Part shown: one piece after another, positions 9,369-49,700 of the stretch
How the letters are laid out: each line of letters starts with the position of its first letter
How positions within the stretch are numbered: the first letter of the stretch is position 1
Assembly: GCA_005893265.1 (NCBI GenBank)
Contig: VBOX01000087.1
Span: forward strand, 128-64,127
Length of the DNA: 64,000 nucleotides
Reading direction: 5' to 3'
DNA from: Candidatus Eiseniibacteriota bacterium
GTDB lineage: Bacteria > Eisenbacteria > RBG-16-71-46 > SZUA-252
Made by a program: the position numbers and the translations under genes
Notes under the pieces: model-generated
Told to the model about the DNA's origin: nothing
Databases searched by the model: none
The model's input: the letters and a program-made list of their open reading frames with translations, nothing else

Positions 9369-9391
9369 GCTCAGGACTGAGTATCCTCCGC

Positions 9392-9413
9392 TTGATTAAC
9401 TCAAATTGATTAA
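9392..9413. promoter_or_regulatory. two direct copies of TTGATTAA, 14 bp apart, in an AT-rich divergent intergenic region; candidate XRE operator
   Basis: Repeats read directly, 24-45 bp upstream of the XRE start codon. Confidence 0.35.
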
Positions 9414-9439
9414 GTAGTCAAAATCATTCTTCGCACCAC

Positions 9440-9468
9440 TTGACAAAACAAGAGAATTCACCTACTGT
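9440..9468 (+). promoter_or_regulatory. putative sigma70 promoter: TTGACA, 17 bp spacer, TACTGT
   Basis: Consensus -35 and acceptable -10 (TAnnnT) upstream of the 9560 gene. Confidence 0.35.
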
Positions 9469-9559
9469 AGTTAATGGACGAAGGGAGTCTTCAGGCAGGC
9501 TAAACTAGCTTGGGTTATCTGAAACAACCCCCCTTGGCCAGACAACCTAGGAGGTTGCC

Positions 9560-9880
9560 ATGTTTGCACGCAGAGTCTCCATGGAACTTAAGCCTAATAG
9601 CTCCTTGGAGTTGACGCAGAAGCTCGAGAAGGAAGTCATTCCGATGCTTCGGAAGCAGAAGGGTTTCCAGGATGAGATCACCTTCGTCGCCACGGGCGGC
9701 GCAAAGGCGTTCGGAATCAGTCTCTGGGACAAGTCGGAGAGCGCGGACACCTACAACCGCGAGACGTACCCGGAAGTCGTGAAGCTCCTGGCGAAGTTCG
9801 TTGAGGGGACGCCTCGGATTGATACCTACGAGGTTTCCAACTCGACGTTCCACAAGATCGCGGCTGCACTACCGGTCTAA
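9560..9880 (+). CDS. small ferredoxin-like-fold protein (ABM/Dabb-like monooxygenase-type domain), function unknown
   Basis: 106 aa, strong AGGAGG RBS, followed by a perfect hairpin terminator. Confidence 0.5.
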   Translation: MFARRVSMELKPNSSLELTQKLEKEVIPMLRKQKGFQDEITFVATGGAKAFGISLWDKSESADTYNRETYPEVVKLLAKFVEGTPRIDTYEVSNSTFHKIAAALPV

Positions 9881-9901
9881 GGTCGATCGGTTCATTTGCT
9901 T

Positions 9902-16972: not shown

Positions 16973-17025
16973 TCGCGGCACTCTACCCGGCCTCGGGCCG
17001 CCGATCAATGGCGCGCGCACCGCAC

Positions 17026-18560
17026 CTAATATACGTACTTCCGTGGGCTTCTCGGCGGCGGATCCGATCGACTCTGTCGGACAAAAACGCACATCTTGTC
17101 CCGGGCAGAAACCGTGTTGTGAGCCAATTGAACCAGAAAGAGAGGGGAGTACTTGTGCGTTGAATCAGCGTCGTAATAGCAGAACGTTTCGTCTCCGGGC
17201 GACCCATAGGCGGCATACCTGCGGAACCAGTTTGGAAAGATGATGAGCAGGCGAGGCTTGTATAGAGTCAGATTCTCAGGTAACGGTCTTAGGGGTGAGA
17301 TGAGGCCCATGAGATCGACGATGTACCGATCACTGAAATACCCGATCGCACCGATGTCGTTGACTGCAAGTGCATCACCAGGTCGGGTGATGCTTCTCGC
17401 GATCTCGCCGATCCGTCTCTGCATGCTGTTGATGTTCTGAACATTCCATGCGTGGTCCTCGGCCCGCCGGAGTGCCCCGATGCCTTCGGGGATGAGGATA
17501 GTCCCCACCAAGCAGGTGAGTGCTAGACGGCGCAAATTCCGCGGGGTTCTGTCCGCCAAGGTCACCATGCCGATTCCGATGAGTATGGCCCCTGGACCGA
17601 TGACGTACAGGATGTAGCGCGATCCGGCACCGGCTGACCCCGCGACTAGGGTCCACGCGATGGGAAGGCCAAACGGGTACAGGGGCAGTAGTGGAAACCT
17701 ACGGAGGGTGACCGCTCCTCCAACTACCATCAGAACGATCGGGAGAGCCGAGCCTGCTATTAGGGGAATGGAGGTGCTGGGAACGCCCCAAAGGGCAGCC
17801 CATTCCCCCAGGATTCGCGTCAACCGAGGAATCAAGGCAGCCGTCAAGGACGCCTTGGCGGCTACGCTACCGGGAAGAATCGCGTGCCCCACCCCATAAT
17901 TGAATGCGGCGTAAGCGACGACGATCGATGCCAGCAGGAGGAGCCTCCGAAAGGCCCCCTCTCGACTTGATGCTACTCCAGCGAATGCTAGGAGTATTCC
18001 CTCGGGTCGCACCCAGATGCCCAGACCCCAGACGAGGGTCGCCGGAAGCAGACGGCGGCTCACATAGAAGTAAAAACCAACGGATACGATGCACAGATAG
18101 AATGGGATTTCCATTCCTGAAAGCGATGCCCACAGCAGGGGCGGAGACATCCCGACAATCAGGGCGGCTGTCAGCTGGGCGTACGTCTTCGCAGGCTCCA
18201 AGATGCGCATCGTCTTGAAAACTACAACGGTAGTGACGCACTGAAAGACAATGCCTACAGCCTTTGCGCCCCAAACGATGTCTCCAATGGCGCGGTACAC
18301 AAGAGCCAATAGCAGTGTGTAGAGCGGGGCCGTTGAGAGCCCCCAACCAGTTCTCCACGATTGAAGGAGTAGCCGTATCCCGAGGCAAGGTTCCTGGCGA
18401 TTGTCGCGTGGATCCAGGAATCATCCAGCGAGAATCCCCATCGTGCCGCGATCTGTTTCTCCGCCGCTATGAAGAGGGCTTCGGCGGCTAGGACGGCGCA
18501 CAGCAGGAGGGAGTAGGATCTCCAATTCTTCTTAGCCGTGCCGGTGGCTGCATCGGGCAT
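17026..18560 (-). pseudogene. polytopic membrane glycosyltransferase (GT39/PMT-like, DDSWIHA..ARNLASGYGYSFNRGE N-motif) interrupted by a -1 frameshift at a G5 run near 18320
   Basis: The N-terminal 18255..18560 frame ends in junk. The frame of 17026..18309 reads STAPLYTLLLALVYRA directly after ...NRGELVGGS, so the two frames join at ggttgggggctctc. Confidence 0.6.
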
Positions 18561-30670: not shown

Positions 30671-31849
30671 TCAGCGCGCGGCCCGAATCTGGCTCTGGAC
30701 CCAGGCGCCGATGCGGCGGAGCGCCTCGCGTATGTTCTCGACCGAGTTGGCGTAAGAGAAGCGCATGTAACCCTCGCCGTGCGAGCCGAACGCGGTCCCG
30801 GACAGCGCCGCGACGCCGGCCTCCTCGAGGAGGATCCGCTCCGCGTCGGCGCTCGTCATCTGGAGCGCCTGAATATTCGGGAACACGTAGAAGGCGCCCG
30901 CCGGCTTCAAACATCGGATCCCGGGGATCGCGTTCAAGCCCTGGACGATCTCGTCGCGCCGCCGATGGAACTCGGTGACCATGCTTCCGACTTCACTCTG
31001 GGCCCCGCCCAGCGCCACGATCGCCGCCCGCTGCACGAACGAGGTCGCGCAGGAATAGACGTTCGTGGCGAGCCGCGCGACGTGCTTCGCGAGCGTCGGA
31101 TTCATGATCCCGTATCCGAGGCGCCAGCCGGTCATCGCGTAGGTCTTCGAGAATCCGTCGAGGAGGATTGTCTTCTCGGCCATTCCCGGACGGGTGGCGA
31201 TCGACTCGTGGACCCCATCGTAGAGAATCTTGGAATAGATCTCGTCGGATAGAACGAAGATCTCGCGGTCGCGCAGCAGTGCGGCGATCTCGTCGAGATC
31301 CTTGGGCGTGAGGACCGAGCCTGTCGGGTTGTGCGGCGAGTTGAGCACCACCATCCGCGTCTTCGGCGTGAGCAGGGGCTCGAGATCCTCGGCGCCGACC
31401 CGGAATCCGCGGTCTTCGCGCAGCACCATGGGAACGGGCTTCGCGCCGATGAACCGGACGACCGATTCGTAGATGGGAAAGCCCGGATTCGGCACGATGA
31501 CTTCGTCCCCCGGGTTCACGCACGCCATGATCGCGAACGTGAGCACGGGTTTTCCTCCCGGGGTCACGACCACCTGGTCCGGGGCTGTCTTGAGTCCCCG
31601 GTCGCGGGTGATGAAGGCCGCGATCGCCTCGCGCACCTCGGGCAGCCCCGCCGAGGGACCGTAGTGCGTGAACCCCTCGTCGAGGGCACGCGCCGCCGCC
31701 GCGCGGATCGAAGCCGGGGTATCGAAGTCGGGCTCTCCGATTTCGAGGTGCACGATCGACCGGCCCTGGGCCTCCAGGGCCCTCGCCTTCGCGAGGACCT
31801 CGAAGGCCGTTTCGGTGCCGAGCTGATTCATCCGGTCCGCATATCGCAT
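30671..31849 (-). CDS. class I/II pyridoxal-phosphate aminotransferase (aspartate aminotransferase family)
   Basis: VVLNSPHNPTG, GFSKTYAMTGWRLGY (PLP-Lys). Confidence 0.85.
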   Translation of the reverse strand: MRYADRMNQLGTETAFEVLAKARALEAQGRSIVHLEIGEPDFDTPASIRAAAARALDEGFTHYGPSAGLPEVREAIAAFITRDRGLKTAPDQVVVTPGGKPVLTFAIMACVNPGDEVIVPNPGFPIYESVVRFIGAKPVPMVLREDRGFRVGAEDLEPLLTPKTRMVVLNSPHNPTGSVLTPKDLDEIAALLRDREIFVLSDEIYSKILYDGVHESIATRPGMAEKTILLDGFSKTYAMTGWRLGYGIMNPTLAKHVARLATNVYSCATSFVQRAAIVALGGAQSEVGSMVTEFHRRRDEIVQGLNAIPGIRCLKPAGAFYVFPNIQALQMTSADAERILLEEAGVAALSGTAFGSHGEGYMRFSYANSVENIREALRRIGAWVQSQIRAAR

Positions 31850-31857
31850 CGTGTCTC

Positions 31858-33384
31858 CTAGGGTGACCGATTCAACCTGAGCCAGAGCGTTCCGCTCCAG
31901 GGTCTGGCGCCGCCCGAGTCCTCACCCCGCTCGAGCGCGTATCCGAACTGCCAGAGCCGGGGCCCAAACCCACCGCGCGCGGAGACCCAGAGGCCCGGCT
32001 TCGATCGCGTTCGCAACGTAGTGTCGCCGGACGGCGTGAGCCCGATGCCCCATGCCGATGCGCCTTTCCGGATCCGCGTCGCCTCGACCAGCAGCGAGTG
32101 CCGGCCGAGCTTTCGCATGCGCAGGTCGAGCCTCGAACCGAATGTCGTGCTCGACGCGCTCGATCCGGCGTTTCTGGAGCCGCGTTTCAGCACGTGCACG
32201 GCGAGGCTGCGCCGGTCGTCGCGGGCGAGGGTCGCATCGGCGAGCCCGTAGGACTCGAGTGCCGTGGGCCGATTGCCCACGCGCCCGAGGCCGGCGGTCC
32301 CCACTCGCAGCCGCAGGGGCGCGCCGTCGCCTCGCGACCTCGTCACCTCCAGCTCCAGGAGCCCGTCGTCGGCCGTCGCGTTGCCCGACCAGGAACGCCA
32401 CGTCACGCGGGCCCGCGAAGCGGAGCCGATCGTTTCCGCGCTCAGCTCTGCGGCAACCTGCCTCGCCGTCCAAGAGCGATACCGCCAGCGCGCGGAGAGA
32501 AACGCGTTCCCGCTCCGTCTCCCGACTTCCGCTAGGAGCGCGCGTCCATCACGGCAGTCGAGCGCTTCCAGCGCCACGTTCCCGCTTTGGGCTCGTCGTA
32601 CGACGGTGATCGAGCCGCAGCGCAAAGGTGGAACCGAGGCCCCGCCCCCAGCCGTCTTCGTCTCCGCATCCGCGGCCCGGCCGCGCAAGTCCGCGCCGAA
32701 CGCCGCCACGGCGCGGGTTCGCCCCCATGCAGCCCCTAGCCCCACGCCCCCGATCGGCTCGCGGGTCTCGCTTCGGAACCCGGCGAACGCCCAGATCGCC
32801 TGGGGCCCGTTCCACGTGAATGCGCCTCCGTCGAGCGCTCCGGCCGAAGCGCCAAGCGAGGGCTGTGCGCGCGCCGTGCCCGTCCTCGGCCCCAGCAAGC
32901 GGCGGCCGCCCCGCGTGATGCGCATCGCTTCCGCGAATAGCGCGGGGCCGCGCGTCACGCTCACCCGGCCTCCAGCCAACACGAGGCGCTCCCCGCCGAC
33001 CGTCAAACGGGCTCCCGGCCTGAACCGCCGCTCGTCCACGAGGAAGCCAAGCTCGCCGCGCGCGCCCCGGCGCTCATCGAGCACGCCGATCCGCCGCAGC
33101 CGAAACTGCCCGCGGGTGACCGCGCCCCGAAACAGCGCGCAGGGCCGCAGGGGCGCCCGCTCCTCCTCCAAGGGCTCTGTGGTCTCGAGATCCTCTTCCG
33201 GGGCCGGCAACCACGCATCGCCGCCATCCGTGGAATCCGGCTCCGCCGGCGCCTGGCTCGCCCCATCCAGAACAGCCGCATCCGCCGCCGCGCATCTCAC
33301 CGACGTCGCCATCAAGGGCATGCCGGCGGCGAACACGAAGCACAGATGCCTTGAAAATGGCGCGAGCCGAGTGCGCCGGCGCAT
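31858..33384 (-). CDS. hypothetical secreted/outer-membrane protein (beta-rich; 3' segment of the 1882-codon open frame)
   Basis: N-terminal signal-like MRRRTRLAPFSRHLCFVFAAGMPLMA after a 360-bp divergent intergenic region. Alternating hydrophobic beta-strand pattern. Ends 6 nt upstream of the aminotransferase start. Confidence 0.4.
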   Translation of the reverse strand: MRRRTRLAPFSRHLCFVFAAGMPLMATSVRCAAADAAVLDGASQAPAEPDSTDGGDAWLPAPEEDLETTEPLEEERAPLRPCALFRGAVTRGQFRLRRIGVLDERRGARGELGFLVDERRFRPGARLTVGGERLVLAGGRVSVTRGPALFAEAMRITRGGRRLLGPRTGTARAQPSLGASAGALDGGAFTWNGPQAIWAFAGFRSETREPIGGVGLGAAWGRTRAVAAFGADLRGRAADAETKTAGGGASVPPLRCGSITVVRRAQSGNVALEALDCRDGRALLAEVGRRSGNAFLSARWRYRSWTARQVAAELSAETIGSASRARVTWRSWSGNATADDGLLELEVTRSRGDGAPLRLRVGTAGLGRVGNRPTALESYGLADATLARDDRRSLAVHVLKRGSRNAGSSASSTTFGSRLDLRMRKLGRHSLLVEATRIRKGASAWGIGLTPSGDTTLRTRSKPGLWVSARGGFGPRLWQFGYALERGEDSGGARPWSGTLWLRLNRSP

Positions 33385-33744
33385 GATAGCAGAGGGTCCC
33401 GGGGGCAACAACGCCGCCATGGACCGCCGCGATCGAGCCCGGCGCGAGCCTCGCAACGATGCGACAAACCCAACAGCCCAGGCGATTTCGGTGGAAGTGA
33501 CCTCGCCGATCGAGTATAATACTTCACGCCGCTTCCGAGTGGCTGTCGCGGTCGGGGAGCGGATGTCGCAAACATCCAGCATGCGAGGTCTCCCCGAGGC
33601 GACATGCCCAGCCCGTGCCGGTCTGCCGTCAGATGTCGCGCCGTGCCTGGCCTGTCCTTCGCCCCGGAGCGCCCTCGAGATCGGGCATCGATTCGAATCC
33701 ACCTTCTTTCCGCACCAGTCGATCGATCCAGAAGGAGCTCCCCT

Positions 33745-36594
33745 ATGCGACGTAGTGCTACTGCGCTGATCGTGTCTCTCTTTCTCTCGGCATCCCTCTC
33801 CGGCGGCTCTGTCGCCTCCTCGAGCGTGCCCGCGCCGTCCGGTGAGACGGTCCTCCCGGGTGTGGTCCCGACCCAGATCCCCGAGAGCGGGCCCGAAGTC
33901 GGACAGCCCCCGGCTCGCGCTGGGCGTTCGATGCGTACGGCTGCTACCGGAGAGACGGTCTGGGTTTTCATCGACAGTCTCGAGACGCGCACGAGCCCTA
34001 ACAACGAGGGAGGGTGGACCCACTACGACGCTTCCGCGAAGCCGACCGCGTGGCACATCGATACCTTCCTCGGGTGCCAGAACCATTCGTGGTGGTGCGG
34101 GGTCATCGACTCTTCCTGGATTTACGACTCGAATCGCGCCGGGTACGACAACGACTGGACTCAATACCTCCAGAACTCGTTCCCCTCGAGCGCCGCACCG
34201 GCGGGAAGCCAGGTCACGATCAGCTTCAGGCACCACTTCGACGCCGAGCCCCTTTATGACTTTGGGTACGTCGAAGTGAACGATCTCGATAACAACTGGC
34301 AGCAGCTCGCTTTCTTCACGGGAAAGGTTCCGAATAGCTCCCTTTGCGACACCTTCACGGTGAACGTTCCAGATTCCATCGTCGCGAAGTGGCGCGCTGG
34401 GAACGACGGCACCGGCACGAACCCCCTTCCGGTGCCGTTCCGGTTCAATTTCACGAGCGATATCGGCTATTCCTCGGCGGACGGCCTTTACAACGGAGAC
34501 GGCTGGATCATCGACAACGTCACCGTCAAGTCGGGCTCGAACGTCATCTTCTCCGACAACGTGGAAAACGGGATGGGTAACTGGCAGCGGTCCACGTTCC
34601 CCGGCGTGGGCGACTTCTTCTACCTCCAAAGCAACGTCCTGACCGAGGACGTGTGTTCCTCGAATCAATCGAAGGTCTGGACCGACTGGAACCAGGCCAC
34701 CCTGACCCTGGTTCCCCGTCTGGACAACTTCGTCGTGACCCCACCGGTCGCGACGAACCGGGCGAGCACGGTCTTTGTCAATTTCGATGTCTACCGAAAC
34801 CTTCCGCTCAACTCGTGCTTCTACTACCACACGAATTTCCGAACGAAGAACATCGGTGACGCCCAGTGGGGAAACTGGATCGACCCGACTTTCTTTGTTT
34901 ATTACGGGGGAAACAAAGACTGGATCCGCCAGGCGATCTCGCTGCCTGGGGCGGGCGGCAAGGATTCCGTGCAGGTGGAGTTGGGCCTCCGGGATTACGC
35001 CATCGTCTTTTGCGGCGGCAACTCGTCCTCCTCCAACACATATGGGTTGTTCGACAACGTCGCGATCGGAGTAATCGGCCAGACCGGCCCCGGCTTCATC
35101 GTGCGCGACATAGACCTTTTCAACGACACGTTCCAGACGACCCCGTTCTTCCGAGACGACAACTTCAACAGCCCGCTCGGTGACACCACGGTCGTGCAGG
35201 TCAGCGCGTCGCACGGGTACAAGAACGGCTTCATGTATTACAGATTTAATGGCGGGTCGTTCAACTCGGTCCCACTCCAGCACGTGGCGCCGGCGCTCCC
35301 GACCCATTTCTTCGCCGACGTTCCTCCCGGGAGCTACCCGGCAAACACGACCCTGGAGTATTACTTCGCGGCGACGGACAGCCAGAACGTCACCGCCTAT
35401 TTCCCGGTCGACGCGATCACGAACCAGCGCTATCGCTCGGCTTCGATCCTGCCTGTGAAGACGGCCATCAATCTGCCGATGGGGTGCAGCGACAGCCTCG
35501 CCTCGATCCTCTTCGTGAATCACTTCTCGGGGCGCGAGCCGCAAGCGTACACCGCGTCCGCGCTGACCGCGCTCGGGTTCAAGTACGACACATGGGATGT
35601 GAACGGCCCGACGAGCGGAATCGGAAACTGCCTCGGCGGCTCCGACCCGACCGATATCCAGTACCACTGGCCGGTGACGGACGTCGGCAAGCTGCTTCAG
35701 TACTCCACGATCATCTGGCACTCGGGGGATCTCTCCTCGTTCACCATCACGCCTCAGGATCAGGCGGTGATCCAGTCCTGGATCCAGCAGCCGGGGAAGG
35801 ACCGCAACTTCTGGATCTCCGGGGACGACGTTGGCTACGATCTCATGGCAAACAGCGGCGCGAATAACTACAACGGCTTCCTGGGGTTCACGTGCGGCGT
35901 GCTCTGGCTGCGGAACAACTGGGAGAACACCCCTCAGGACACGCTCCATCCGGTCGTGAAAGGGGTGCCCGGGGGTCCCGCGGCGGGGCGGTTCATGCAC
36001 CTGAACGGGGGTTGTCCCATCATCAATCAGTTTGATCTGGTCACACTTTCCTCGGCCGCGAACCAGGGCAAGTCGGGCAACCTGCTCACGTACCCCAACA
36101 GTTTCGCCGCCGCGACGCGTTACGCCACCGATTACAACACCTTCAGCCCGACCGACAGCGCGAGGTCCGTCTTCTGCGGGTTCGGCTTCAACGCGATCGA
36201 GGAGGGGGGCGAAAGGCTCCAGCTCACGAACGCGATCGTCCACAACTACTTCAAGGAAAACGCCTGCTACACGGCTACGGGGGTGGAGGAGGGATCGGGT
36301 GAGGAAGCTCCGACGTTCCGGAGCAGCCTCGGGCAGAACATGCCGAACCCGTTCAACCCCGAGACCGCGATCCACTACTCTGTGGCGCGCGCGGGCCAGG
36401 TTGATATCCGCATCTACAACGTAAGCGGGGCCCTTGTGCGCACTCTGGTGAGTCACGTTCAGCCTCCCGGCGAGTACGTCGCGCGCTGGAACGGGGCGGA
36501 TGATCAGGGGCACCAGCTCCCGAGCGGAGCCTACTTCTACGTGCTCGATACGAAGGGATTCCGGGCTTCGAAGAAGCTGATCCTCCTCCGTTAG
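33745..36594 (+). CDS. large secreted protein (949 aa) with C-terminal FlgD-Ig/T9SS-type sorting domain; function unknown; markedly lower GC than flanks
   Basis: GAAGGAG RBS, signal peptide MRRSATALIVSLFLSASLSGG, Asn/Trp/Tyr-rich ectodomain. C-terminal NPFNPETAIHYSV..GQVDIRIYNVSGALVRTL...GAYFYVLDTKGF; strong terminator follows. Confidence 0.8.
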   Translation: MRRSATALIVSLFLSASLSGGSVASSSVPAPSGETVLPGVVPTQIPESGPEVGQPPARAGRSMRTAATGETVWVFIDSLETRTSPNNEGGWTHYDASAKPTAWHIDTFLGCQNHSWWCGVIDSSWIYDSNRAGYDNDWTQYLQNSFPSSAAPAGSQVTISFRHHFDAEPLYDFGYVEVNDLDNNWQQLAFFTGKVPNSSLCDTFTVNVPDSIVAKWRAGNDGTGTNPLPVPFRFNFTSDIGYSSADGLYNGDGWIIDNVTVKSGSNVIFSDNVENGMGNWQRSTFPGVGDFFYLQSNVLTEDVCSSNQSKVWTDWNQATLTLVPRLDNFVVTPPVATNRASTVFVNFDVYRNLPLNSCFYYHTNFRTKNIGDAQWGNWIDPTFFVYYGGNKDWIRQAISLPGAGGKDSVQVELGLRDYAIVFCGGNSSSSNTYGLFDNVAIGVIGQTGPGFIVRDIDLFNDTFQTTPFFRDDNFNSPLGDTTVVQVSASHGYKNGFMYYRFNGGSFNSVPLQHVAPALPTHFFADVPPGSYPANTTLEYYFAATDSQNVTAYFPVDAITNQRYRSASILPVKTAINLPMGCSDSLASILFVNHFSGREPQAYTASALTALGFKYDTWDVNGPTSGIGNCLGGSDPTDIQYHWPVTDVGKLLQYSTIIWHSGDLSSFTITPQDQAVIQSWIQQPGKDRNFWISGDDVGYDLMANSGANNYNGFLGFTCGVLWLRNNWENTPQDTLHPVVKGVPGGPAAGRFMHLNGGCPIINQFDLVTLSSAANQGKSGNLLTYPNSFAAATRYATDYNTFSPTDSARSVFCGFGFNAIEEGGERLQLTNAIVHNYFKENACYTATGVEEGSGEEAPTFRSSLGQNMPNPFNPETAIHYSVARAGQVDIRIYNVSGALVRTLVSHVQPPGEYVARWNGADDQGHQLPSGAYFYVLDTKGFRASKKLILLR

Positions 36595-36628
36595 CGCGCC
36601 TCGCTCGCGGTGGAGCTTCGAAGACTCG

Positions 36629-36664
36629 CGGGGGCCCGCCTTCTCGGCGGGCCTCCCCCTTTTC
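36629..36664. terminator. rho-independent terminator (GGGGGCCCGCC-ttctc-GGCGGGCCTCCCCC-TTTT)
   Basis: GC-rich 11-bp stem followed by a T-run, immediately after the 33745..36594 stop. Confidence 0.65.
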
Positions 36665-37497
36665 CCGGACGCGAGGCCCAAACGAATGCCCGTGATCGTT
36701 CCCCCGAACGCGTAGTCGAGCCTTCCCCAGGACGCCTCGATATTCCCTGTCCTCACTTCGAGCGCCGCCCCGATCCTGCCGGGGGCCGAGCCGCGTCCCA
36801 GCCTTAGGCGCAACGCCTCCCCGAACGGAACCTCGAGCGCCATGCGCGGGCCATGGGTCCCGTCCGGCTGCCAACGGTCCACGATCGCTACGCGCGCTGA
36901 TCCCGCGCTAAGCGAGGCGCCCAGCTCCAAGGCGGCGCGGACGGCCCCCCGCTCCAGCGCTCGGGTTCTCAGAATCCGGTCGCCACCGATCCACACATCC
37001 AGCCGCCCACCCGCTGCGCCGCGGGCGCATCCGCCGAGCGCCCAGCCACCCCAGGCTTCCGAGCCCTCGGGGAGAAAATCGAGGCGCTCCACGCGGAGGG
37101 CCAAAGCGATCGGGCGTGCGGCACGTTCCCTGACCTCAAGACGGACCGACGACTCGCCCGTCCCCGGGCCGGAGAGCGCAGCGTATTCAAGGCGGAACGC
37201 ATGAGTCTTTTGCTGCAGGGAGATGTCGAGCTGGTTCAGCGACAGGGCATCGGCGCCGAAGGGGGACGCGCGGGTTGCCCCAGCGCGCCACGAAAGTCCG
37301 GTCATGCCAGCCGACGCGGAGTCTGCGGGATCACCTGACGCCTCCGGGCTGGAACCACCATCGAAAGTGCGCCATGCGCCGTCGGTGGAAGCGGTGCCCA
37401 ACGCGTCCGGGCTGGCGTCCCGGAGCTCGAACGCTGCCCAGGCGTGGGGCAACGGCACCGCCGCGCTCCACAGGAGAAAGGCCGCGACGAACCTCAT
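36640..37497 (-). CDS. putative outer-membrane beta-barrel protein (signal peptide; 3' end undefined because the frame has no stop before entering the antisense of the convergent gene)
   Basis: ATG overlaps the TGA of the upstream LTD gene (ATGA). Signal MRFVAAFLLWSAAVPLPHAWA, then amphipathic beta-strands (AFRLEYAALSG, RLDYAFGGTITGIRLGL). The 36640 end is an arbitrary placement. Confidence 0.3.
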
Positions 37498-39251
37498 CGC
37501 GTCCACCGATCCACCACGGAGAGGGTAAGGGCTGCGCTCCTGATCGGCTCGCGGTCGTCCGGAATCGTTTCGGCCCGCACGATGTAGATCCCGGCCGGCA
37601 CGGGACTACCCTGGTCGTCGCGGCCGTCCCAGAGAAACGCTCCTTCACCCAGGATTCGCTGCCCGTCGACGAGGAGCCGCCGCGGGCGGCCCAGGAGGTC
37701 GTGCACGAAGACGCGGACCCGGCTCCCGCGCGCCTCCTCGCTGAATCGCAACACGACCGGGGCGGCCGGCAATCCGGGCGCCCGCCGAACCACGCGCGCG
37801 CTTGCGATGAGAAGCGAGCCGCGGCGTCCCACGCCCGTACCCGGGGCCGGGGCCTGAATGGAGTTCGGCCGAGCCGGCGTTCCCGATCGAGGGTCGATCG
37901 ATTCCGTCCAGGAGCTCGCCGACGCGCTGGGGAGCATCGTCCCGAGGCGCTCGAGCGATCCGTCTCGCGCGGTGTACCCCGCGCGATAGGGGACGACATC
38001 GGATGGCGTGCCGGACGCATCCACGACGCGCACACGGTCGGCGAAACCGTCCTCGCCGTCGGCGTCGTTGAGGGCCGCCCAGCCTCCGAGGCATCCTAGG
38101 ACCGCGCTGTCCGGCAGCGAGTAGCTCCTGCGCAACATCTCGGGGGACTGCGCGATGACAATGATCGCCCCCGCGTGAGCCGGGCGCGGTGTCGGCCCCC
38201 GATCGATCGCGTAGGCGCGGCCGCCCGCGTCGGAAAGCGCGAAGAACCCGACGTCCGCGACCTCTTCACGAGCCATCACCTCGACCCATTCCCCCGCCCC
38301 TCGATCCCGGAACGCGATTTCGTTCACGACGAGCGGGCCGGCCGTCGACCGCGCCTCAAGGAGCGCGGTGTCCGCGACGGCGGACCCATATGTGAATGGC
38401 TCAACGCCGAGATCGCGCAGGTAGAGCCGGAGACCGAACCTCCCGGGCGGAGGCGTGAAGAGCGCGCAGTGCACGCTCGCGCTTTCTCCCGGAGCGACGG
38501 TGGAGCCTGGGCTGATCCCCACCGGCGCGGCGGACCACGGGCTATCCGGCCTGTCCCCGACGCGCACGACAACCTCGGCTTGCCATCGAGCCGCCGGGAC
38601 CAACTGGCGCCCGAGGTTCTTCACGGTCGCCCGCAAGGTCGCGACATCCCCGGGCCATGGCACATCCGGCACGAGACGGGCGCTTCCGCGCGTGAAGGAG
38701 AGCCGGATGTCGGGATGGTTCGCGAGCCCCGGCGTGGGGCTCGGTTCGGGCGCCCAGTCCGCCGCGTTCCACTGGGTGTCCACACCGTCCGCAATCCGAG
38801 AGAGAGATTGTCCGGAGGATACGTCCGCGGCGGGCGCGCCCTCAAAGAGCTCGCGGGCGGTGAGCGTCCCGTAACCCAGGAGGTCGAGCACGATGCCCGC
38901 GCGGGTCAGACGAATCGCGTCCGGACCGTTCTGGAGGGGAGCGAGAAGGGAAGACCCCGGGATCAGAAACGCGTGCCGGGGAGACACCGAATCGCCGACC
39001 GCGCCCACGTAGACCGGGGTCCAAACCCCCGGTCGTGAGCCGTCGCCAGACTCCACCGCGATCCCGACCAGCGAAAGGGCGACGGTGTCCGGATTCCAGA
39101 GCTCCACGAACTCCGATCCCTCATCGATCCCCTCGGGGTCGTACAACACCTCGTTCAGGAGGATTTCGGCGTCGGAACGCGAAACGTGCGCGGCGAGCAA
39201 GACGAGAGCGGCGAGACAGAACGCGGGCTTGCGCCCGAACATGCGCGGCAT
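37494..39251 (-). CDS. secreted protein with two lamin-tail domains and C-terminal FlgD-Ig/T9SS-type sorting domain
   Basis: Start MPRMFGRKPAFCLAALVLLAAHVS with an AGGGGG RBS. ILLNEVLYDPEG.DEGSEFVELWNP and LVVNEIAFRDRGAGEWVEVM. C-term ..GEGAFLWDGRDDQGSPVPAGIYIVRAET. Confidence 0.7.
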   Translation of the reverse strand: MPRMFGRKPAFCLAALVLLAAHVSRSDAEILLNEVLYDPEGIDEGSEFVELWNPDTVALSLVGIAVESGDGSRPGVWTPVYVGAVGDSVSPRHAFLIPGSSLLAPLQNGPDAIRLTRAGIVLDLLGYGTLTARELFEGAPAADVSSGQSLSRIADGVDTQWNAADWAPEPSPTPGLANHPDIRLSFTRGSARLVPDVPWPGDVATLRATVKNLGRQLVPAARWQAEVVVRVGDRPDSPWSAAPVGISPGSTVAPGESASVHCALFTPPPGRFGLRLYLRDLGVEPFTYGSAVADTALLEARSTAGPLVVNEIAFRDRGAGEWVEVMAREEVADVGFFALSDAGGRAYAIDRGPTPRPAHAGAIIVIAQSPEMLRRSYSLPDSAVLGCLGGWAALNDADGEDGFADRVRVVDASGTPSDVVPYRAGYTARDGSLERLGTMLPSASASSWTESIDPRSGTPARPNSIQAPAPGTGVGRRGSLLIASARVVRRAPGLPAAPVVLRFSEEARGSRVRVFVHDLLGRPRRLLVDGQRILGEGAFLWDGRDDQGSPVPAGIYIVRAETIPDDREPIRSAALTLSVVDRWTR

Positions 39252-39360
39252 GGGATTCCCCCTTGAAGAGGAGGCGGGGGGAGTGTCGGTAGGATCGGCG
39301 GCGCTCGGGGAGCGCCCTCGCTCTCGGGGTACGTTGGAAGCCGGCGGGTCGGGTGACGCC

Positions 39361-41523
39361 CTAAAGCAAATGGAACCTCTTCCGCAAAACCCATTCCGCG
39401 GTCGCACCGAGGACGAGCACGAGGAAAAGCGGGACGTTGTGGAAAATATCCAGCTCGATGATGCGAGCCCTGGCGATGTCGGGCGAGCGCAGCCTCGCGA
39501 GAACCGGTCCCGAGCGGGCAAGGGGCGCGGCAACGCCTCCCGAGCGCGAGGCGAGCCGCTCGAGCACGGAAGGCTCCGCGCCAAGCGATTCAAATTCGAC
39601 TCCCTGCTCACCCACCGCGACCTGAAGGCTGTCGGTGCCCACCAATCGGCCCGCGCGCTCCACGCGCCCCACGAGCCAATAGACCCCCTCCGGAAGCGCG
39701 ATGGAGCCCGCGAAATCGCCCTGGATCGAGGCGCTGAGGCGCCCTTCACCGGCTACACCGCCGGCGCTCCGCCGCGCCCGCACGGTCGCCCGCGCCCCGG
39801 TGCCGACGGCGCCGTTCGCGAGCGCGAGCCGCACCGGGACCGCTCGCTCGGCCGGCGTCAGGTCGGGAGCGGAGATCCGAACCGGCCGGTCGTCCGCGCT
39901 CTGCGAGAGCCAGGCGTTGAGCCCTCCGAAGAAAGACGGCTCGATGCCGGCTCCGCCCCCCAGCCCGGCCGCCGTCAGGCCCCAGCGATAGACGCCCGCC
40001 GCGTTCAATACAGCGACACGGCCGGATCCGACCCGTCCGGCCAAGAGAAGTGGCGTGGTTTCGGTTCCGTAGCGCGCCTCGAGGAGGGGCGTGAGGGCAC
40101 TGCCTTTCAGGTTCAGGATGAGCGGCGACTGAATCGGCGGGAGCGAGCGCCAGGTGGCGACCGCGGTGGCGGCGTCCCCCCCGAGAAGCGAGACTTCGTG
40201 CGCCCTGCCGGCTTGAGACAGCTCCACCCCCGTGCTGGGCCCGGTCGCTCTGCCGAAGTCGCGCCACTCGAGGCCAAGAGCGTTCGTGAGAGGACCCGGG
40301 GCCGGGGGCCGATTGACCGGGTCGATCCAGAACAGCACGCCCCCTCCGCGATTGAGAAAACTTAGAGCCTCCGCGCTCCGCTCCGGGGTGAGCGTGCGGG
40401 AGTCGAATCGAAGGACAAGGACGTCTGCGTCGCGCAGCGCCTGCGCGAAGCTCTGTGGCGCGCCACCGGGGGCTCCAACGGAGGAGGATCCCGACGGAGC
40501 CCATCGCTGGATGGCCCAGGACGTGTCCTCCTCCACGCCGCGCGCGAAGGAGCGAAGGTCCCAGTCCCATGCCGTCGCCACAAGAGGTACCAGGCGTTTC
40601 GCCGGGCGTGCGGTGACCGCGATCAACCTCCTCTTGTTCTGTGTGATGGGATCCCCGGGCAAGCTGTCGAGCTTCACCGCGAGGAAATGCTTACCGCGTT
40701 CTCCGAGGGTGAAGGGGATCGTGACACGGCTCACCGAGCCGGGTCGCTCCAACGCGAACGAAGCGCGGCCCAGCTCCCGCGAGCCCTCGCTCAGGCGCGC
40801 GACCCCACGCGTCGCGGGGCGAGCCCCGTGGCGGACCGTCACGGAGAGCGTCGCCGGCCGACCGATGACGACCTCGCTCGGAGCATCGATCCCGCCGATG
40901 CCGGCCGTGGGAGGATCGCCTGTTGAGCCCACGACGAGCGCGAAGGCGGGTACGGTCGATGCCAGGGCGCGCTCCGGGTCCTCCCCGCGATTCACCGCGC
41001 CGTCGCTCAAGACAAGCATCGCCGCGAGCGAATCCGGATCCAGGCGGTCGAGCCCCTCGCGGATCGCATCCCCAAGCGCGGTCTCCCCCGCACCGCGCGT
41101 TTGGGTCGCGGCTTTCCACGACGAAGGTTTTCCAATCGGCCCCAACGAGGCATCGAAAGGCGCCAGCCGCACGTCGTACCGTCCCGAAAACCCACTCGCG
41201 ATCGCCGTCGCGGCGCTGTCCACAACCTCGCGCCGCGTTCGTCCCGCCGAGTCGCCGTCCCGGACCTCCATGCTTCCGGAATGGTCAACCAGGATGAGCA
41301 TCCGGTTCCGTTCGCGTGCTGCGCTCGAATACCGAACCACCGGGGCGAGCGAGGCGAAGAGGAGCGCCAGCAGCGTGGCGGTGCGGACGGCCGTGAGAAT
41401 CGCGCGGCGTCGCGGGAGGAGCGCCGGATACCGCGTGAGATAGAGCGAGAGCCCGAGAGCAAAGGCCGCCGCCAGGAGTACCAGCGCGACGATGTTGGGC
41501 GATGACGAGAGTGAGAAATTCAA
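39361..41523 (-). CDS. von Willebrand factor A (VWA) domain membrane protein (BatA-like; N- and C-terminal TM anchors)
   Basis: MIDAS motif MLILVDHSGSM..., two N-terminal TM helices, C-terminal TM VPLFLVLVLGATAEWVL. Confidence 0.65.
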   Translation of the reverse strand: MNFSLSSSPNIVALVLLAAAFALGLSLYLTRYPALLPRRRAILTAVRTATLLALLFASLAPVVRYSSAARERNRMLILVDHSGSMEVRDGDSAGRTRREVVDSAATAIASGFSGRYDVRLAPFDASLGPIGKPSSWKAATQTRGAGETALGDAIREGLDRLDPDSLAAMLVLSDGAVNRGEDPERALASTVPAFALVVGSTGDPPTAGIGGIDAPSEVVIGRPATLSVTVRHGARPATRGVARLSEGSRELGRASFALERPGSVSRVTIPFTLGERGKHFLAVKLDSLPGDPITQNKRRLIAVTARPAKRLVPLVATAWDWDLRSFARGVEEDTSWAIQRWAPSGSSSVGAPGGAPQSFAQALRDADVLVLRFDSRTLTPERSAEALSFLNRGGGVLFWIDPVNRPPAPGPLTNALGLEWRDFGRATGPSTGVELSQAGRAHEVSLLGGDAATAVATWRSLPPIQSPLILNLKGSALTPLLEARYGTETTPLLLAGRVGSGRVAVLNAAGVYRWGLTAAGLGGGAGIEPSFFGGLNAWLSQSADDRPVRISAPDLTPAERAVPVRLALANGAVGTGARATVRARRSAGGVAGEGRLSASIQGDFAGSIALPEGVYWLVGRVERAGRLVGTDSLQVAVGEQGVEFESLGAEPSVLERLASRSGGVAAPLARSGPVLARLRSPDIARARIIELDIFHNVPLFLVLVLGATAEWVLRKRFHLL

Positions 41524-44801: not shown

Positions 44802-46745
44802 TCATCGGCGCGCCTCCGACTTCATCCGCTCCCTCGCTTCGAGCACGTTCCGCCGGGCGCTCTCGTTCAGAGGATCGAGCAGGAGGATCTGCTCCCAGTT
44901 CCGGAGCGCCTCGCGGTAGTCGCCCGCGGTGAACGCCTCCATGCCCTTGATGTAGAGCTGCTTGATCCGCGCATCGAGCTCGGGCTTGGGCGTCGTGAGC
45001 CTGCGCTGGATTCGGTCGCGCCAGTCCCGCGCTTCGGGGCTCGTGGGATCCAGCGCGAGCGACCGTTCGACCGCCGCCTTCGCCTCCGCATACCGTCCTT
45101 CCGCGAACGCCCGCGCCACCTCGTTCAGTGCGCCGAGAGCGGCCAGCTTCCGGCTCAAGGTCTGCGCTTCCGATGCGCTCTTGCCGAGCGAGGTCTGGAG
45201 AGCGTCCCACAGGGTTCGTGCGCGCGGATCGTCGGGCTTGAGCCTCAGCGCGAGCGCCACCTGGCCCGCGGCGTCGAGGAGTCGCCCTCGTGCCTGAAGC
45301 GAGTCGGCGCGGGAGAGCGCGCGCTCGGCGGCACGGTCGCGCGCGGCGGCGACGTCCCGGACAAGGGCCGCGAGGGTGTCCTGGGACGCGCCGTCCGAGC
45401 CGCCCCCCGTTGAGATCCCGCGCAAGAGACCCGCCGCTTCCTCGGCGTCCCCCCGCGAGAGCGCCTGGCGGGCCATCTCCGCGAGCGTTGACCTGAGCCG
45501 CCGCCCGCTCTCCGAGGCGATCGCCGCCTGGGCGTTCCGCTCGATCTCGACACGCGCCCGCCCGGCGCGCTGGCTGTAGCTCGGCTCGCCGGGATCCGCG
45601 CGCTGGAGAACCTCCCAGAGCACAAGCGCGGTCTCCCAGTCACCCGAGCTCTCCGAGGTGTCCGCCTTCTTGCGGTCGCGTGCGATCTCGCCCGCGCGTT
45701 CCGCGCGGATGGAATCCTCCGCCGCCCGCCGAAGCTCGACCATGCGGCGCGATTCGTACTTGCTGATCGGCTCGCCCCACGCCATGCGCACCGCGAACTG
45801 CTGGGTCGCCTCGACGCTTCCGCTCTGGTAGGCGTAGTCGAAGCCGTAGCGCCGGAAGCGGAACCCTAGGCCGAAAATAGGATCCCCGTTCGAAATCCCG
45901 GCGCGAACGGCGCCCAGCCCCGCGCGCGTGAACTCGAGGCCGACGCGCGGCTTCATCCCTTCCCTCCCGCGGGTCCCGACGTCGAGCACGACCCTTCCTG
46001 CGCTCATTGGGTTCAGGCGCCATTCGGGGCTTCCGAGCCCTAAGCGGAACGATCGGTCAAGCGTCGAAGACGCACCGCCCAGGTCGAGCGAGCCCGCGAC
46101 GACGTTTTGCGCCGACACGCCGACTTGACCACCGCGGAGCACGGCCGGGCGGTAGAGGAAGCCCACGTCGAGCGCCGGGGCCGAAGCCGAAACGTCGCCG
46201 AGCGACTGGCCCAAGATCTTGAAGGTGAGCCCGCCCCAGATCGGCCCGCGCACGCGTCGCGCGACGCTGGCGGCCGCCGCCGTCTCGCGGTAGACGATCG
46301 AGCCGAGCGGCCGGTTCCCCGCGTCGTAGGCGTCGATTCCGCCGGTTCCGATCCGCGCAAAGCCAAGACCGACGCCTCCCAGGCCAGGAACGGGATAGGA
46401 GACGGCGGCAAGGTCCCAGGTCGTGGAGAACTGGAGCATTCCGTGGTGGACCAAGAAGGAGCGCTCATCCTGCGCCGCCAGGCCGGCCGGGTTCATGTAG
46501 ATCGCGAGCGGATCGAGCGCCACGCCCGTGAAGCCGCTCGCGGCGCCCGTGCTCGGCCAGCCCGCCGGCGTGGAAAGAAGGTCCGACGTCCCCGCGGTCT
46601 GGCCCGCGGCGCGCGCGCGCGTCCCGAAAAACGCGGCGAGGAGAAGCGACGCGGCGCAGATGGCACGGATCAGCCGCTGGGCGTTGATCCGGCGAAGTTG
46701 GCGGCGCAGGACGCGCCGGTTACGGAAGCATCGCCGCATTCTCAT
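44802..46745 (-). CDS. PorV/FadL-like outer-membrane beta-barrel fused to a C-terminal TPR-like domain
   Basis: Start MRMRRCF with a GGTGGGGGTG RBS; ATGA overlap with the giant upstream gene. Signal peptide; FTGVALDPLAIYMNPAGLAAQ resembles the PorV/FadL N-motif. C-terminal TPR-like helices (YIKGMEAFTAGDYREALRNWEQILLLDP). Confidence 0.6.
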   Translation of the reverse strand: MRMRRCFRNRRVLRRQLRRINAQRLIRAICAASLLLAAFFGTRARAAGQTAGTSDLLSTPAGWPSTGAASGFTGVALDPLAIYMNPAGLAAQDERSFLVHHGMLQFSTTWDLAAVSYPVPGLGGVGLGFARIGTGGIDAYDAGNRPLGSIVYRETAAAASVARRVRGPIWGGLTFKILGQSLGDVSASAPALDVGFLYRPAVLRGGQVGVSAQNVVAGSLDLGGASSTLDRSFRLGLGSPEWRLNPMSAGRVVLDVGTRGREGMKPRVGLEFTRAGLGAVRAGISNGDPIFGLGFRFRRYGFDYAYQSGSVEATQQFAVRMAWGEPISKYESRRMVELRRAAEDSIRAERAGEIARDRKKADTSESSGDWETALVLWEVLQRADPGEPSYSQRAGRARVEIERNAQAAIASESGRRLRSTLAEMARQALSRGDAEEAAGLLRGISTGGGSDGASQDTLAALVRDVAAARDRAAERALSRADSLQARGRLLDAAGQVALALRLKPDDPRARTLWDALQTSLGKSASEAQTLSRKLAALGALNEVARAFAEGRYAEAKAAVERSLALDPTSPEARDWRDRIQRRLTTPKPELDARIKQLYIKGMEAFTAGDYREALRNWEQILLLDPLNESARRNVLEARERMKSEARR

Positions 46746-49700
46746 CGCAGCACCCCCACCTTGACCTGCTCGCTCACCCCCGGTCCTTCGATCCGGGCGA
46801 CGTAGACACCGGGGCGCACGACCTCCCCTTTGCCGTTCCGTCCGTCCCAACGCACTTCGTTCAAGCCGCTCGCGCCGCCCACCCCTCCCGAAGGGAGCGA
46901 CAGCTCCCGCACCAGGTCGCCAAGGAGCGTGTAGATGGAAACCTTGACCGAAGCGTCCTGGCCAAGAACGTAGGAGAGAAGGACCGCTTCGCTCCCGGCG
47001 TGGAAGGGATTCGGATAGCCGTGCGGCCGGTCGAAGAACGTGATCTCGCGGGAGGCGAGCGCCGTGAATGGAAGCCCGCCGCCCCCCACGATGGGCACAC
47101 GGGTCCCGGTGAGCCCGTCCAGGGCCACGAGGTCGTTCGCCTGCGCGACCTGGAGCGCGACGCGGACGGCGGGCGAGCCAGGGCGGAACGCGACATCGAC
47201 GAAGAGCGATTCCGGCCCGTTCGTCATGATGAGCGGCTGGGTAAGGCTGAGCGTGAAGGGATTCGGCGCGCCCGGAGGCGGCGCCCCTTGCGCGAGGAGC
47301 GCGCCCACGCGATCGCGGAGCGAGATCGAGGACACCGAGGACGCGGGCGGGAGGCCGGTGGAGCCGTCCGCGACGATGGTGATCGCGACCGACGTCAGCG
47401 AATCCTTCGTCGAAACGCCGGTCTGGACGAGCGGCAAGAGCTCGAGCCCCCACGCGCGGATCGGCGGCCCGCCCCGCGCGAGCTGGACCGGCACGGCGGC
47501 GTCGAGGCCGCGGACCTGGATCGCGGCGAGCTGCCCGAGCACGGTGAGCTCGCTGTCGGGAGAGGTAGCGGCGGCGCTCGCGGCCAGCGCCCATTCGGTC
47601 CCGCCGATCGCGAGGTCCACCCGATAGGGCTGGCTCGCCATCGCCGCGGGGACGAGAACACCCGGGAACACCAGCGCGGCCTGGGTGCTCGGTGCGAGCA
47701 GAAAGGCGGGGCCGGAGGCGAGGCCGGTCATGACCTCGCTGCCGTCGCTCAAGGTGAAGCGCGTCTGGGCGGGATCGATCACGAAGGGGGACCCCCCGCT
47801 GTTCTGAACATCGAGGGTGAGATCCACCGTCTGGCCCGGACGTACTTGGCTCGGCGCGGTCGAGCGCCCGACGAACTGAAGCAGCGCCGGCGGCATCGCG
47901 TGGAGCGTGCCCCCGGGGAGGCTCTGGGCGCGCGCGACGCCGTCTTCGATGCCGAACACGTCGAGCGTCGCCGCGGCGTTCCCAGGCGAGGCGGGCGAGC
48001 CCAGAGGACCGCCGGTGAAGGCAAGGTTGAGCGACTGGCCCGGGTTCACGGTGGGCGAGGCGCTCAGGGTGCGCGTGACCGACACCGGGGCGCCGAGCTT
48101 GAGCACGGTTGCGGGGTCGAGTGCCATGGGCACGTCACCGTCGTTCCGGAGCGTGAGCGACACGGGACGCGATTGCCCCGCGCTCACGGTGTCCGGAGCG
48201 AGCGACCCGGCAACCACCGTGAGGAGCGCGGGGTCGAGAACGTCGATGCTGTCGGGCGCCGAGGGAACGGTGTCGGCAAAGGCCTGTCCGGATTCCGTGC
48301 CGTCGAGGAAGAGACGCGCGCGGTAGCGCCCCTTGGGCACGCCGACCGCAGGCACCGCGAGCGAGTCGAATGCGAGGGTCGCCTGGTCGGAAGCGAGGAC
48401 GGCGGTGTTCGCGGATAGCGCCGTCGTGAGCGTCGTCCCGCCCGCATCGAGCTCGAGGCGCGTGGTGTTTCGATTGAGGGTGACCGCCGCGGCGCCCGTG
48501 TTCGCGACGCGCACGGTGGGAGCGAACGTCCGCCCGCGCAGGAGACGCTGCGGCGTCCCGCTGCCCGCGACCGCGACGACGCGAGCGGCCGAGATCACGC
48601 GGAAGCTGAGCGGGATGGAGTTCGACGCGACCACCGGCGTGCCCGCGAAGGTGACCGTCGCCTGGAGCGTCGAGTTGATCGTCGTCCCGGAAGGGATCCC
48701 ACCCGACGGCACCGCGACCGGAAACGTGAACCGGGTGGTTCCGCCTGCCGGGATGGTCGTCCCGAGCGGAGGCGTCGGCGCTCCGCTGATGAACGCCCCG
48801 GTCGAGTAGCTCAAGCTGCCGCCCGTGATGTCGCCCGGCGTCCCGGATAGATTCGCGACGTCGAAGACCAGTGAGAGGTTCTGGTATCCGAGCGGCGCGG
48901 GATCGGGCGAGGCGCTGACTTTGGCGACGCTCAATCCGAGCACGCTCACCTGCGACCCGGCGAGGCTCAGGTAGAAGTCGAAGGCGTCCCCGGTGGCACC
49001 CGTGCCGACCGCCCGAAAGCTGGGCGCGTACGCGCCGGGGGTCAGCGCGGCGGGGGCGGCCCCGGCGGCGAACGTCAGCGTCGTCGTGGCGCCCGCACCG
49101 ATCGCGGCCGTTGAGCCGAGCGCCGCCGTGAAGGTGGTCGCGCCCGAGCCGAACGAGAAGAGGGATCCGGTACCGAGCTGGATCGCGCCCGCGCCCGTGT
49201 TCCGCGCCTGGAGCGCGAACGTGACGCTTCCCCCGGGGATCACGGCTCCCGGCGCCAGCGAGCCGGCGACGTAGGCCAGCGAAGGAGGCGGCACGTAGGT
49301 GAAGGCGTGGCTTCCCGCGGCGGATCCGGCGCGGGAGGCGGCGGTGAGGGTATCGGGACCGGGCGCGCCCGGAGCGATCAGGATCAAGGATGCCCTGCCG
49401 TCCGCGGCCGTCGCCAGGTCGAGGCCCGGGAAGAGCGCGCTGGCGTCCGAGGCGAGCAGGGTCCCCGCAAGCGCGCTCACGCCCACGAGCGTCCCAGCGC
49501 TGACGAGGTTCCCGAACGCGTCCCGCACCGGCCCGAGCACGACGGTGGACGCGCTCCTGCCGTCGGCCGTCAAGCTGTCGCGGGTCGCCGCGACGGGGAT
49601 CGCGCCGGAGGGCGCGGCGGGGGACACCGTCGCCGTGCCGCCGGTCCCGCTGCCGCCGCCTGTGCGGTCGGCCCCGATCGCGAACGACTGCGCCACAGTG

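Follow-up and report, generated by a model that had tools for sequence, protein, structure and literature searches.

A predicted surface-protein gene of Candidatus Eisenbacteria, apparently inserted on the opposite strand of an operon, carries a gene-length stop-free antisense frame

Antisense overlapping open reading frames (ORFs) of 957 and 1536 nt in Pseudomonas aeruginosa have been termed 'exceptionally long' (PMC8850804), and they are the longest antisense ORFs in the literature that we searched. For asp of HIV-1, the presence of a clade-specific open antisense frame has been used as an argument (PMC8781085), and a sceptical analysis of long antiparallel ORFs also exists (bioRxiv 10.1101/724807). 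The gene described here, called the target below, lies on the plus strand of a 64,000-nucleotide stretch of DNA (the window: positions 128 to 64,127 of contig VBOX01000087.1, assembly GCA_005893265.1) from a Candidatus Eiseniibacteriota bacterium; all sequences compared with it come from uncultured metagenome-assembled genomes (MAGs) or metagenomes. As with the P. aeruginosa ORFs and asp, an antisense frame within an established gene is kept clear of stops in a single clade, whereas its sister clades have stops there. Unlike them, the frame measures about 2.8 kb over the target, spans the whole gene and is continuous with an operon gene that has lost its stop codon, and no purifying selection on the antisense sequence of the target was detected. 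What is unusual is the locus: a gene was inserted antisense into an operon, and along its full length the opposite strand offers a reading frame free of stops. The meaning of long antisense ORFs in GC-rich bacteria is disputed, and here such a frame is open in just those lineages in which the upstream gene reads into it.

The target is embedded in a row of minus-strand genes whose order is the same in the window and in the related loci L001 (78% identity) and L004 (64% identity). A SpoIIE-type phosphatase, a STAS protein, a 720-aa protein, an LTD/FlgD_ig protein and a protein of about 280 aa (here 'conv') are followed by the target on the other strand, and then by a protein of about 500 aa (here 'up508'), an aminotransferase, an amino-acid kinase and ABC transporter genes. 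The stop codon of the LTD/FlgD_ig gene and the start codon of conv overlap as ATGA at 37494-37497 in the window. Four related loci (L163, L164, L165 and L167) have the same one-strand operon and no target, and in them conv leads into up508 across 4 nt or through an ATGA overlap. The target cassette is present in about 29 loci, and L168 also carries it. Since conv and up508 abut or overlap in the genomes that lack the target, the target, together with its promoter, leader and one-way terminator, is by comparison of these junctions an opposite-strand insertion that split a tightly coupled operon. It is an old one, because the target is fully ameliorated and has diverged together with its hosts. 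The four uninterrupted loci do not all tell the same story. The neighbours of L165 are as close to those of the window as are the neighbours in cassette-bearing loci (86% for the aminotransferase), and L165 retains half of the terminator hairpin at the junction; this suggests a secondary loss. L163, L164 and L167 are as distant as the deepest loci with the cassette, and the uninterrupted state in these three may be the ancestral one. The cassette holds one gene, and neither mobility genes nor terminal repeats were found at it, only chance 7-mers being common to both ends.

In the insertion-carrying clade, conv has lost its stop codon and reads in phase through the whole target on the antisense strand. 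The conv homologues that keep a stop of their own are 264-298 aa long. The conv frame and the reverse complement of the target stop codon share one phase in 18 of 19 loci, and the spacers between both genes measure 63, 66, 69, 75, 78, 81, 84 and 87 nt, all eight lengths being multiples of 3. In every locus, the minus-strand frame translates the terminator hairpin itself into K-R-x-R-P-A...A-G-R. In the window, the frame can stay open over 1882 codons since TTA, CTA and TCA codons are missing from the target: none occurs among its 60 Leu and 84 Ser codons, where 5.35 would be expected from the other genes (P(0) = 0.005). Clade A, formed by the cassette-bearing loci, has no TTA, one CTA and no TCA in 14,424 codons, whereas the corresponding counts are 1, 9 and 11 in the 12,785 codons of clade B (55-59% identity) and 0, 2 and 12 in the 5,341 codons of clade C (44-48% identity). 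The Fisher p for the depletion in clade A is 1e-5 to 2e-7, values that overstate the independence of these phylogenetically related loci. Other rare Leu, Ser and A-ending codons occur at equal rates in the clades. The antisense frame continuous with conv contains 0 stops in clade A, where the two remaining antisense frames contain 29-43 each. TTA, CTA or TCA codons occur 2.5 times per 1000 in the neighbour genes of cassette-bearing loci but 0.13 times in the target, where 3 were counted in 22,729 codons and 57 were expected from the neighbours (Poisson 6e-21); by their position these three appear to be antisense stops near codon 47 that end the frame in three loci. Selection thus removes TTA, CTA and TCA from the target and keeps the antisense frame open. 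At equal amino-acid identity, four-fold-site identity is 0.45-0.48 in clade A and 0.45-0.59 in clades B and C (random, 0.41). The frame is therefore open beyond what codon usage predicts, as expected of an antisense overlapping gene, and another mark of such a gene, purifying selection on the antisense product, was not found. Because the synonymous sites show no extra constraint, it is the openness that is selected and not the sequence of an antisense protein. The controls (neighbour genes and sister clades), together with the lack of sequence constraint, separate 'translation is needed' from 'protein is needed'.

The operon transcript would have to cross the inserted gene by read-through, and the T tract of the terminator, present in the plus direction only, fits read-through on the minus strand. 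Ribosomes translating the antisense frame would keep this transcript covered, shielding it either against Rho-dependent polarity or against base-pairing to the target mRNA, and the downstream genes of the operon would thereby stay expressed. We tentatively propose, as one possible explanation, such a 'translational bridge', in which ribosomes coming from conv would read about 950 stop-free antisense codons and hold the split operon together, with selection acting on openness only, through the synonymous codons that the target uses. If true, this frame would exceed in length every conserved antisense reading frame so far described in bacteria, with sister clades and uninterrupted operons as natural controls. 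Several observations weigh against the proposal, besides the shared ancestry that inflates the significance of the stop depletion. The missing excess of four-fold-site conservation in clade A is one. The end of the frame is variable, lying 86-503 nt before the up508 ATG or fusing in frame to up508, which fits tight translational coupling poorly. There are exceptions to the pattern, namely an early stop in L153 and an in-frame stop inside conv in L168. Finally, a conserved block upstream of up508, described below, could be a promoter of its own for this gene, and would make read-through unnecessary.

Two other explanations of the open frame were weighed against this proposal. That the frame encodes a real protein, conv with a C-terminal extension of about 950 aa in a gene-length overlapping gene, would agree with the conserved phase, with the spacers in multiples of 3 and with the clade-specific depletion of stops. 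We consider it improbable, however, since the synonymous sites of the target are under no extra constraint, the antisense product is a 'shadow' sequence rich in Arg, Val, Glu, Asp and Gly, the end point varies between loci and conv homologues that end at a stop codon of their own reach only about 280 aa. Nor do we give much credence to the view, which we disfavour, that the frame is open without any selection on it, simply because a highly expressed gene has a strong codon bias and the loci share ancestry. Long codon-aligned shadow ORFs are common in GC-rich genomes. Other genes of the window carry shadows of 300-960 codons, and antisense stops are likewise missing from 5 of 11 clade B genes. 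Yet clades A and B use the other rare Leu and Ser codons and A-ending codons equally often, TTA, CTA or TCA codons number 0.8-3.3 per 1000 in well-adapted neighbours from the same genomes, four-fold sites are near saturation between most pairs, and a mere by-product leaves the invariant phase and the multiple-of-3 spacers unexplained.

The product of the target is assembled from predicted modules (Table 1). The Sec-type signal peptide was judged by reading the sequence and is kept at the start of the homologues; the AlphaFold model has a predicted local distance difference test (pLDDT) score below 50 at residues 16-70, a part that is poorly conserved in the family alignment, and of 69.5 for the whole protein and 90.8 for the last globular domain. 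The FlgD-Ig-type sorting domain that an earlier note on this DNA, made from the sequence alone, had read at the C-terminus is there: PF13860 (FlgD_ig) scores 38.2 bits (cut-off 27) and TIGR04183 28.8 bits (cut-off 23). The related tail models disagree, PF18962 (Por_Secre_tail) reaching 20.1 bits under a cut-off of 27 and CHU_C also staying under its cut-off. The sorting-tail models match 42-44 of 44 family members. A sequence search of PDB with the single protein gave no match, and one with the profile matched the tail only, to FlgD and the PorU tail. A TIGR04183 score above the curated cut-off and an N-terminal Sec signal peptide are both features of type A cargo of the type IX secretion system (T9SS), exemplified by gingipain adhesin modules and PPAD of Porphyromonas gingivalis (TIGR04183/Por_Secre_tail). 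The target differs from such cargo in its non-Bacteroidota host, in a tail that scores best as FlgD_ig and in an ectodomain of which about 790 residues have no curated family. Beyond the tail, no scanned protein of the 64-kb window matched the NCBIfam models of T9SS components, and we found no literature linking Eisenbacteria to type IX secretion or FlgD-Ig tails to sorting signals. A homology and structure analysis of the ectodomain, which the earlier note had suggested, returned jelly-roll, immunoglobulin (Ig)-like and class I glutamine amidotransferase (GATase1)-like folds and no catalytic family in sequence searches of Pfam, NCBIfam and PDB.

Two of these domains have described counterparts. 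Domain 1 agrees in fold, and by a weak sequence signal, with the MAM domain of immune inhibitor A (M6) peptidases (PF20773) and with jelly rolls of carbohydrate-binding modules (CBMs), and it has the GDGWxIDN-type last strand of the PF20773 MAM domain; the target itself stays under the PF20773 cut-off (17 against 26.9 bits) and, unlike the M6 peptidases, lacks an M6 catalytic domain. Immune inhibitor A was accordingly rejected as an identity for the target, with no Peptidase_M6 match, no HExxH in the translation and the MAM-like domain alone shared. The domain closest to the tail has the fold of the class I glutamine amidotransferases without their Cys-His-Glu triad. The turn after the strand NFWISG (688-693) is G693-D694-D695 and not Cys in 105-106 of 106 sequences, the position of the nucleophile elbow being taken from the secondary structure of the model and not from a residue-level superposition. 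It resembles the GH42 middle domain, ThuA-like proteins, STM3548 and the 'GIFT' domain of IFT52/OST48, at an identity of only 8-15%, and it differs from them in being extracellular (as predicted), fused to jelly rolls and a sorting tail, and equipped with an invariant Asp/His/Cys/Glu set of its own (D694, H752, C757-P758, E820 and E823).

On the basis of these models, the target is most likely a surface-displayed glycan-binding or adhesive protein. The Sec signal peptide would carry it across the inner membrane and the type A sorting domain would direct it into a type IX-like pathway that displays it at the cell surface, where the ectodomain, with two jelly rolls, an Ig-like spacer and the GATase1-like domain, would bind a glycan or glycoconjugate and not catalyse. 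The suggestion of the earlier note, a possible glycan-binding protein without a recognised catalytic motif, thus gains support from the MAM/CBM-like jelly rolls and from a GATase1-like domain devoid of the Cys nucleophile. The main functional rival is an enzyme whose active site, located for instance between the jelly rolls or within the GATase1-like domain, has escaped recognition and which would act on a surface polysaccharide or peptide. The invariant D694, H752, C757, E820 and E823 make such a site possible and weigh against a purely binding role, but no catalytic family was found in the searches mentioned, the top structural matches of the GATase1-like domain are of the non-catalytic subgroup and Asp, not Cys, occupies the canonical nucleophile position; we hold an enzyme to be rather unlikely. 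A PorU- or PorZ-like component of the secretion and attachment machinery, as opposed to a cargo, is very unlikely: a Foldseek match to PorU (6za2, E 3.7e-7), the match of the tail to the PorU model and to the PorU tail in PDB, and the high conservation and good codon adaptation of the target would suit it, but PorU, the T9SS sortase (NF033707), was rejected because neither a full-length match nor a gingipain-like (C25) catalytic domain was found.

The composition of this protein also accounts for the low GC content of its gene, which the earlier note had taken as a sign either of horizontal acquisition or of a very different constraint. The visible dip is real, with 0.589-0.62 in 1-kb windows over the target and 0.68-0.73 in the immediate surroundings, and a GC content of the coding sequence (CDS) of 0.614 against a mean of 0.661 (sd 0.028, n=41) in the other ORFs. 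It is confined to codon positions 1-2, mainly to position 1: the values for the three positions (GC1/GC2/GC3) are 0.544/0.466/0.834 in the target and 0.689/0.506/0.789 on average in the other ORFs. As the earlier note had remarked, Asn, Tyr, Trp and Phe are abundant, making up 20.3% of the residues against 9.0% elsewhere (next-highest gene, 14.8%), with Asn alone at 7.5% against 2.2% in the other genes (z +5.9). From the amino-acid sequence and the synonymous usage pooled over the other genes, a GC content of 0.600 is predicted. The low GC is caused by amino-acid composition, since the numerous codons for Asn, Phe, Tyr, Ser, Thr and Ile bring A or T into positions 1-2, and purifying selection retains these codons against the genomic GC pressure. 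Codon usage is native and rather well adapted, with z = +0.77 for GC3 and an index like the codon adaptation index (CAI) of 0.736 against a mean of 0.66 (z +1.13), and the third positions are as GC-rich as those of the best-adapted native genes. The homologues repeat the pattern: their GC was below that of the flanks in 33 of 33 metagenomic loci (mean gap 0.083), and at 4 + 33 loci GC1 was about 0.52-0.59 and GC3 at host level (0.82-0.93).

The analysis of GC3 and codon usage by which the earlier note had proposed to judge a foreign origin thus showed no foreign deviation. Recent horizontal acquisition from a lower-GC donor, with the low GC as a donor remnant, is hardly credible: the visible dip, the strand of the target, opposite to that of all its neighbours, and its absence from four related loci fit it, but GC3, the CAI-like index and the expected and observed GC are all native, the dip is limited to GC1 and GC2 and recurs in every homologue irrespective of locus, target identities co-vary with those of the neighbour genes, and the cassette has neither mobility genes nor terminal repeats. 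Among the features of a genomic island, presence and absence at the same site in relatives was found and atypical GC3 or codon usage was not. What remains of a foreign gene at this place is that it was inserted here once, as the four relatives without it indicate; the insertion is old and ameliorated, and is not the cause of the low GC. The alternative of a very differently constrained protein agrees with the strongly conserved, beta-rich, Asn- and aromatic-rich ectodomain. For genome scanning, a GC dip by itself is no sign of foreign DNA, and the codon-position split together with the comparison of orthologues settles the matter. A single explanation that joins a conserved surface protein, a composition-driven low GC, an old insertion and an antisense frame kept open is, in our judgement, probable, a grade that applies to the four parts jointly.

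Table 1. Positions of the target, its protein domains, its signals and the surrounding frame in the window
Feature	Position	Strand	Basis
Target CDS, 949 aa, secreted multidomain protein with T9SS-type sorting domain	33745..36594	+	ORF, translation
Sec-type signal peptide (about residues 1-25), MRRSATALIVSLFLSASLSGGSVASSS, and variable low-complexity linker (to 70)	33745..33954	+	read in translation
Domain 1, MAM-like jelly roll, residues 71-285	33955..34599	+	
Domain 2, second jelly-roll / CBM-like beta-sandwich, residues 293-454	34621..35106	+	
Domain 3, Ig-like beta-sandwich, residues 481-567	35185..35445	+	AlphaFold2 model, secondary structure only
Domain 4, class I glutamine-amidotransferase-like alpha/beta domain, non-catalytic type, residues 588-835	35506..36249	+	
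C-terminal sorting domain, residues 862-949	36328..36591	+	FlgD_ig, TIGR04183
Promoter-like TGGAAG, 17-nt spacer, perfect TATAAT (33515-33520)	33492..33520	+	read in sequence
Conserved 5' leader, CCGCTT/GAGCGG and TGTCGC/GCGACA pairings, invariant GGCGACATG core	33529..33606	+	alignments, RNAalifold
Shine-Dalgarno sequence AAGGAG, 7 nt before ATG	33732..33737	+	
Terminator hairpin, 11-bp stem, 5-nt loop, T tract	36630..36663	+	sequence
Inserted cassette (approximate): promoter, leader, gene, half hairpin	33393..36641	+	junction comparison with uninterrupted L165
conv, operon gene convergent with the target, about 279 conserved aa, signal peptide, no own stop here	36661..37497	-	translation; kept in about 29 loci
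up508, next operon gene, signal peptide, no family match; normally directly after conv	31858..33384	-	
Uninterrupted 1882-codon frame: conv, hairpin, codon-aligned antisense of whole target, intergenic region, up508	31858..37506	-	

The listed ORF of the target spans 33604-36594; its effective start is the ATG at 33745 and the stop is the TAG at 36592-94. The start codon and the ribosome-binding site (RBS) are kept across about 30 homologous loci, and so is the extended -10 box of the promoter, of which the -35 box matches the consensus at 3 of 6 positions only and which a consensus scanner did not list. The RBS and terminator that the earlier note had assigned to the gene were recovered, as was the upstream intergenic region of about 360 bp (33385-33744). 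The stem of the terminator is formed by 36630-36640 and 36646-36656 and is followed by CCCTTTT; with only four T in the tract, it was missed by the consensus scanner. In the leader, pairings are predicted between 33529-34 and 33557-62 and between 33564-69 and 33599-604, the invariant core standing at 33598-33606. Compensatory changes occur in the first pairing and the second hardly varies. The pair-count covariation of 0.236, against 0.135 in shuffles and at most 0.136 with slid partners, gives modest support; the fold of the single sequence was no better than that of shuffles (z -0.18), and Rfam had no match for the leader. Promoter and leader are present in about 30 loci of the clade with 62-91% identity and absent from the other clades, and the conserved leader is a candidate RNA element or operator. 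The block upstream of up508 has the form CGCATGATAGCAGAGGG-N8-CCAACAACG (33381-33413), is almost invariant in the cassette-bearing loci and contains the up508 start, which no Shine-Dalgarno sequence precedes. Its minus-strand reading also offers a possible promoter (TTGTTG, 17 nt, TATCAT), and the uninterrupted operons keep only CTGCTAT(C/G)ATG of it.

The target belongs to a family of more than 120 clusters of full-length homologues, with 55-91% identity and about 945 aa, and the mean column identity is 62% over 44 aligned members. Those full-length homologues that have a named source stem from Candidatus Eisenbacteria MAGs, no annotation among the homologues goes further than the tail, and the target protein is lineage-specific. 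Target identities track those of the neighbours and are intermediate between cytoplasmic enzymes and other secreted proteins, and the more distant homologues (55-59%) sit in a different, mutually conserved context. Among cluster representatives at 50% identity the tight family comprises two full-length proteins, and about 250 distant proteins of about 1000 aa share two or three modules, which they pair with beta-helix, BNR, Laminin_G, FG-GAP or cohesin domains, the sorting tail being always present. The target is a new, uncharacterised member of this modular class of sorting-domain cargo, and its highly conserved family is a surface-protein candidate for glycan binding or adhesion in a widespread uncultured soil phylum. 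A scan of genome contigs was dominated by the tail pattern QNxPNPFNP, mostly in unrelated cargo of other phyla, and gave one distant full-length relative, L005. L005, L009, L026 and L072 are relatives at 26-29% identity, one of full length and the rest sharing the GATase1-like half and the tail; their MAG labels are Ignavibacteriaceae, Caldithrix and 'uncultured bacterium', and the module set hence extends past Eisenbacteria. In the window, the earlier note had counted four other sorting-domain genes near the target, of which the hidden Markov model (HMM) of the tail located three, all on the minus strand (46742-52921, 61647-62579 and 37494-39749); a fifth copy in the window, which would have been the fourth neighbour, was not found. 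A comparison of sorting domains, also proposed in that note, was possible for the four window copies, but they are 23-38% mutually identical with no closer pair and allow no conclusion on origin. The copy at 46742-52921 belongs to another large cargo, a 2059-aa protein with Invasin_D3 and Big_1 repeats, a FlgD_ig/T9SS-type tail and a GC content of 0.713.

Concerning the neighbouring genes, the stop codon of up508 lies 8 nt before the aminotransferase start (31849-31860), and the minus-strand genes resemble one translationally coupled operon of surface proteins, a SpoIIE/STAS partner-switching module and arginine-type biosynthesis genes. Profile searches of Pfam, NCBIfam and PDB gave no match for up508 (508 aa) or conv (about 280 aa), and the clade-conserved 720-aa protein (39361-41523, minus strand) had none in Pfam or NCBIfam. 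Public gene calls for conv are inconsistent: the call in L001 (12604-13383) is in another frame (GC2 0.815), that in L168 (6001-6696, 231 aa) ends at the in-frame stop, that in L166 (6001-6834) ends just inside the target antisense, and in L153 a frameshift or an early stop is present. A conv gene lacking a stop is evidently hard for gene callers to handle. Three stretches of the window have a lower GC content than the target, at 8.8-9.9 kb, 17.0-18.3 kb and 62.5-63 kb (down to 0.50). Unlike the target, their ORFs have a lower GC3 (0.65-0.70); they include a helix-turn-helix (HTH) protein at 8805-9368 and a 427-aa ORF without family at 17026-18309. The stretches 8800-9900, 17000-18300 and 62500-63000 are better candidates than the target for atypical or foreign DNA.

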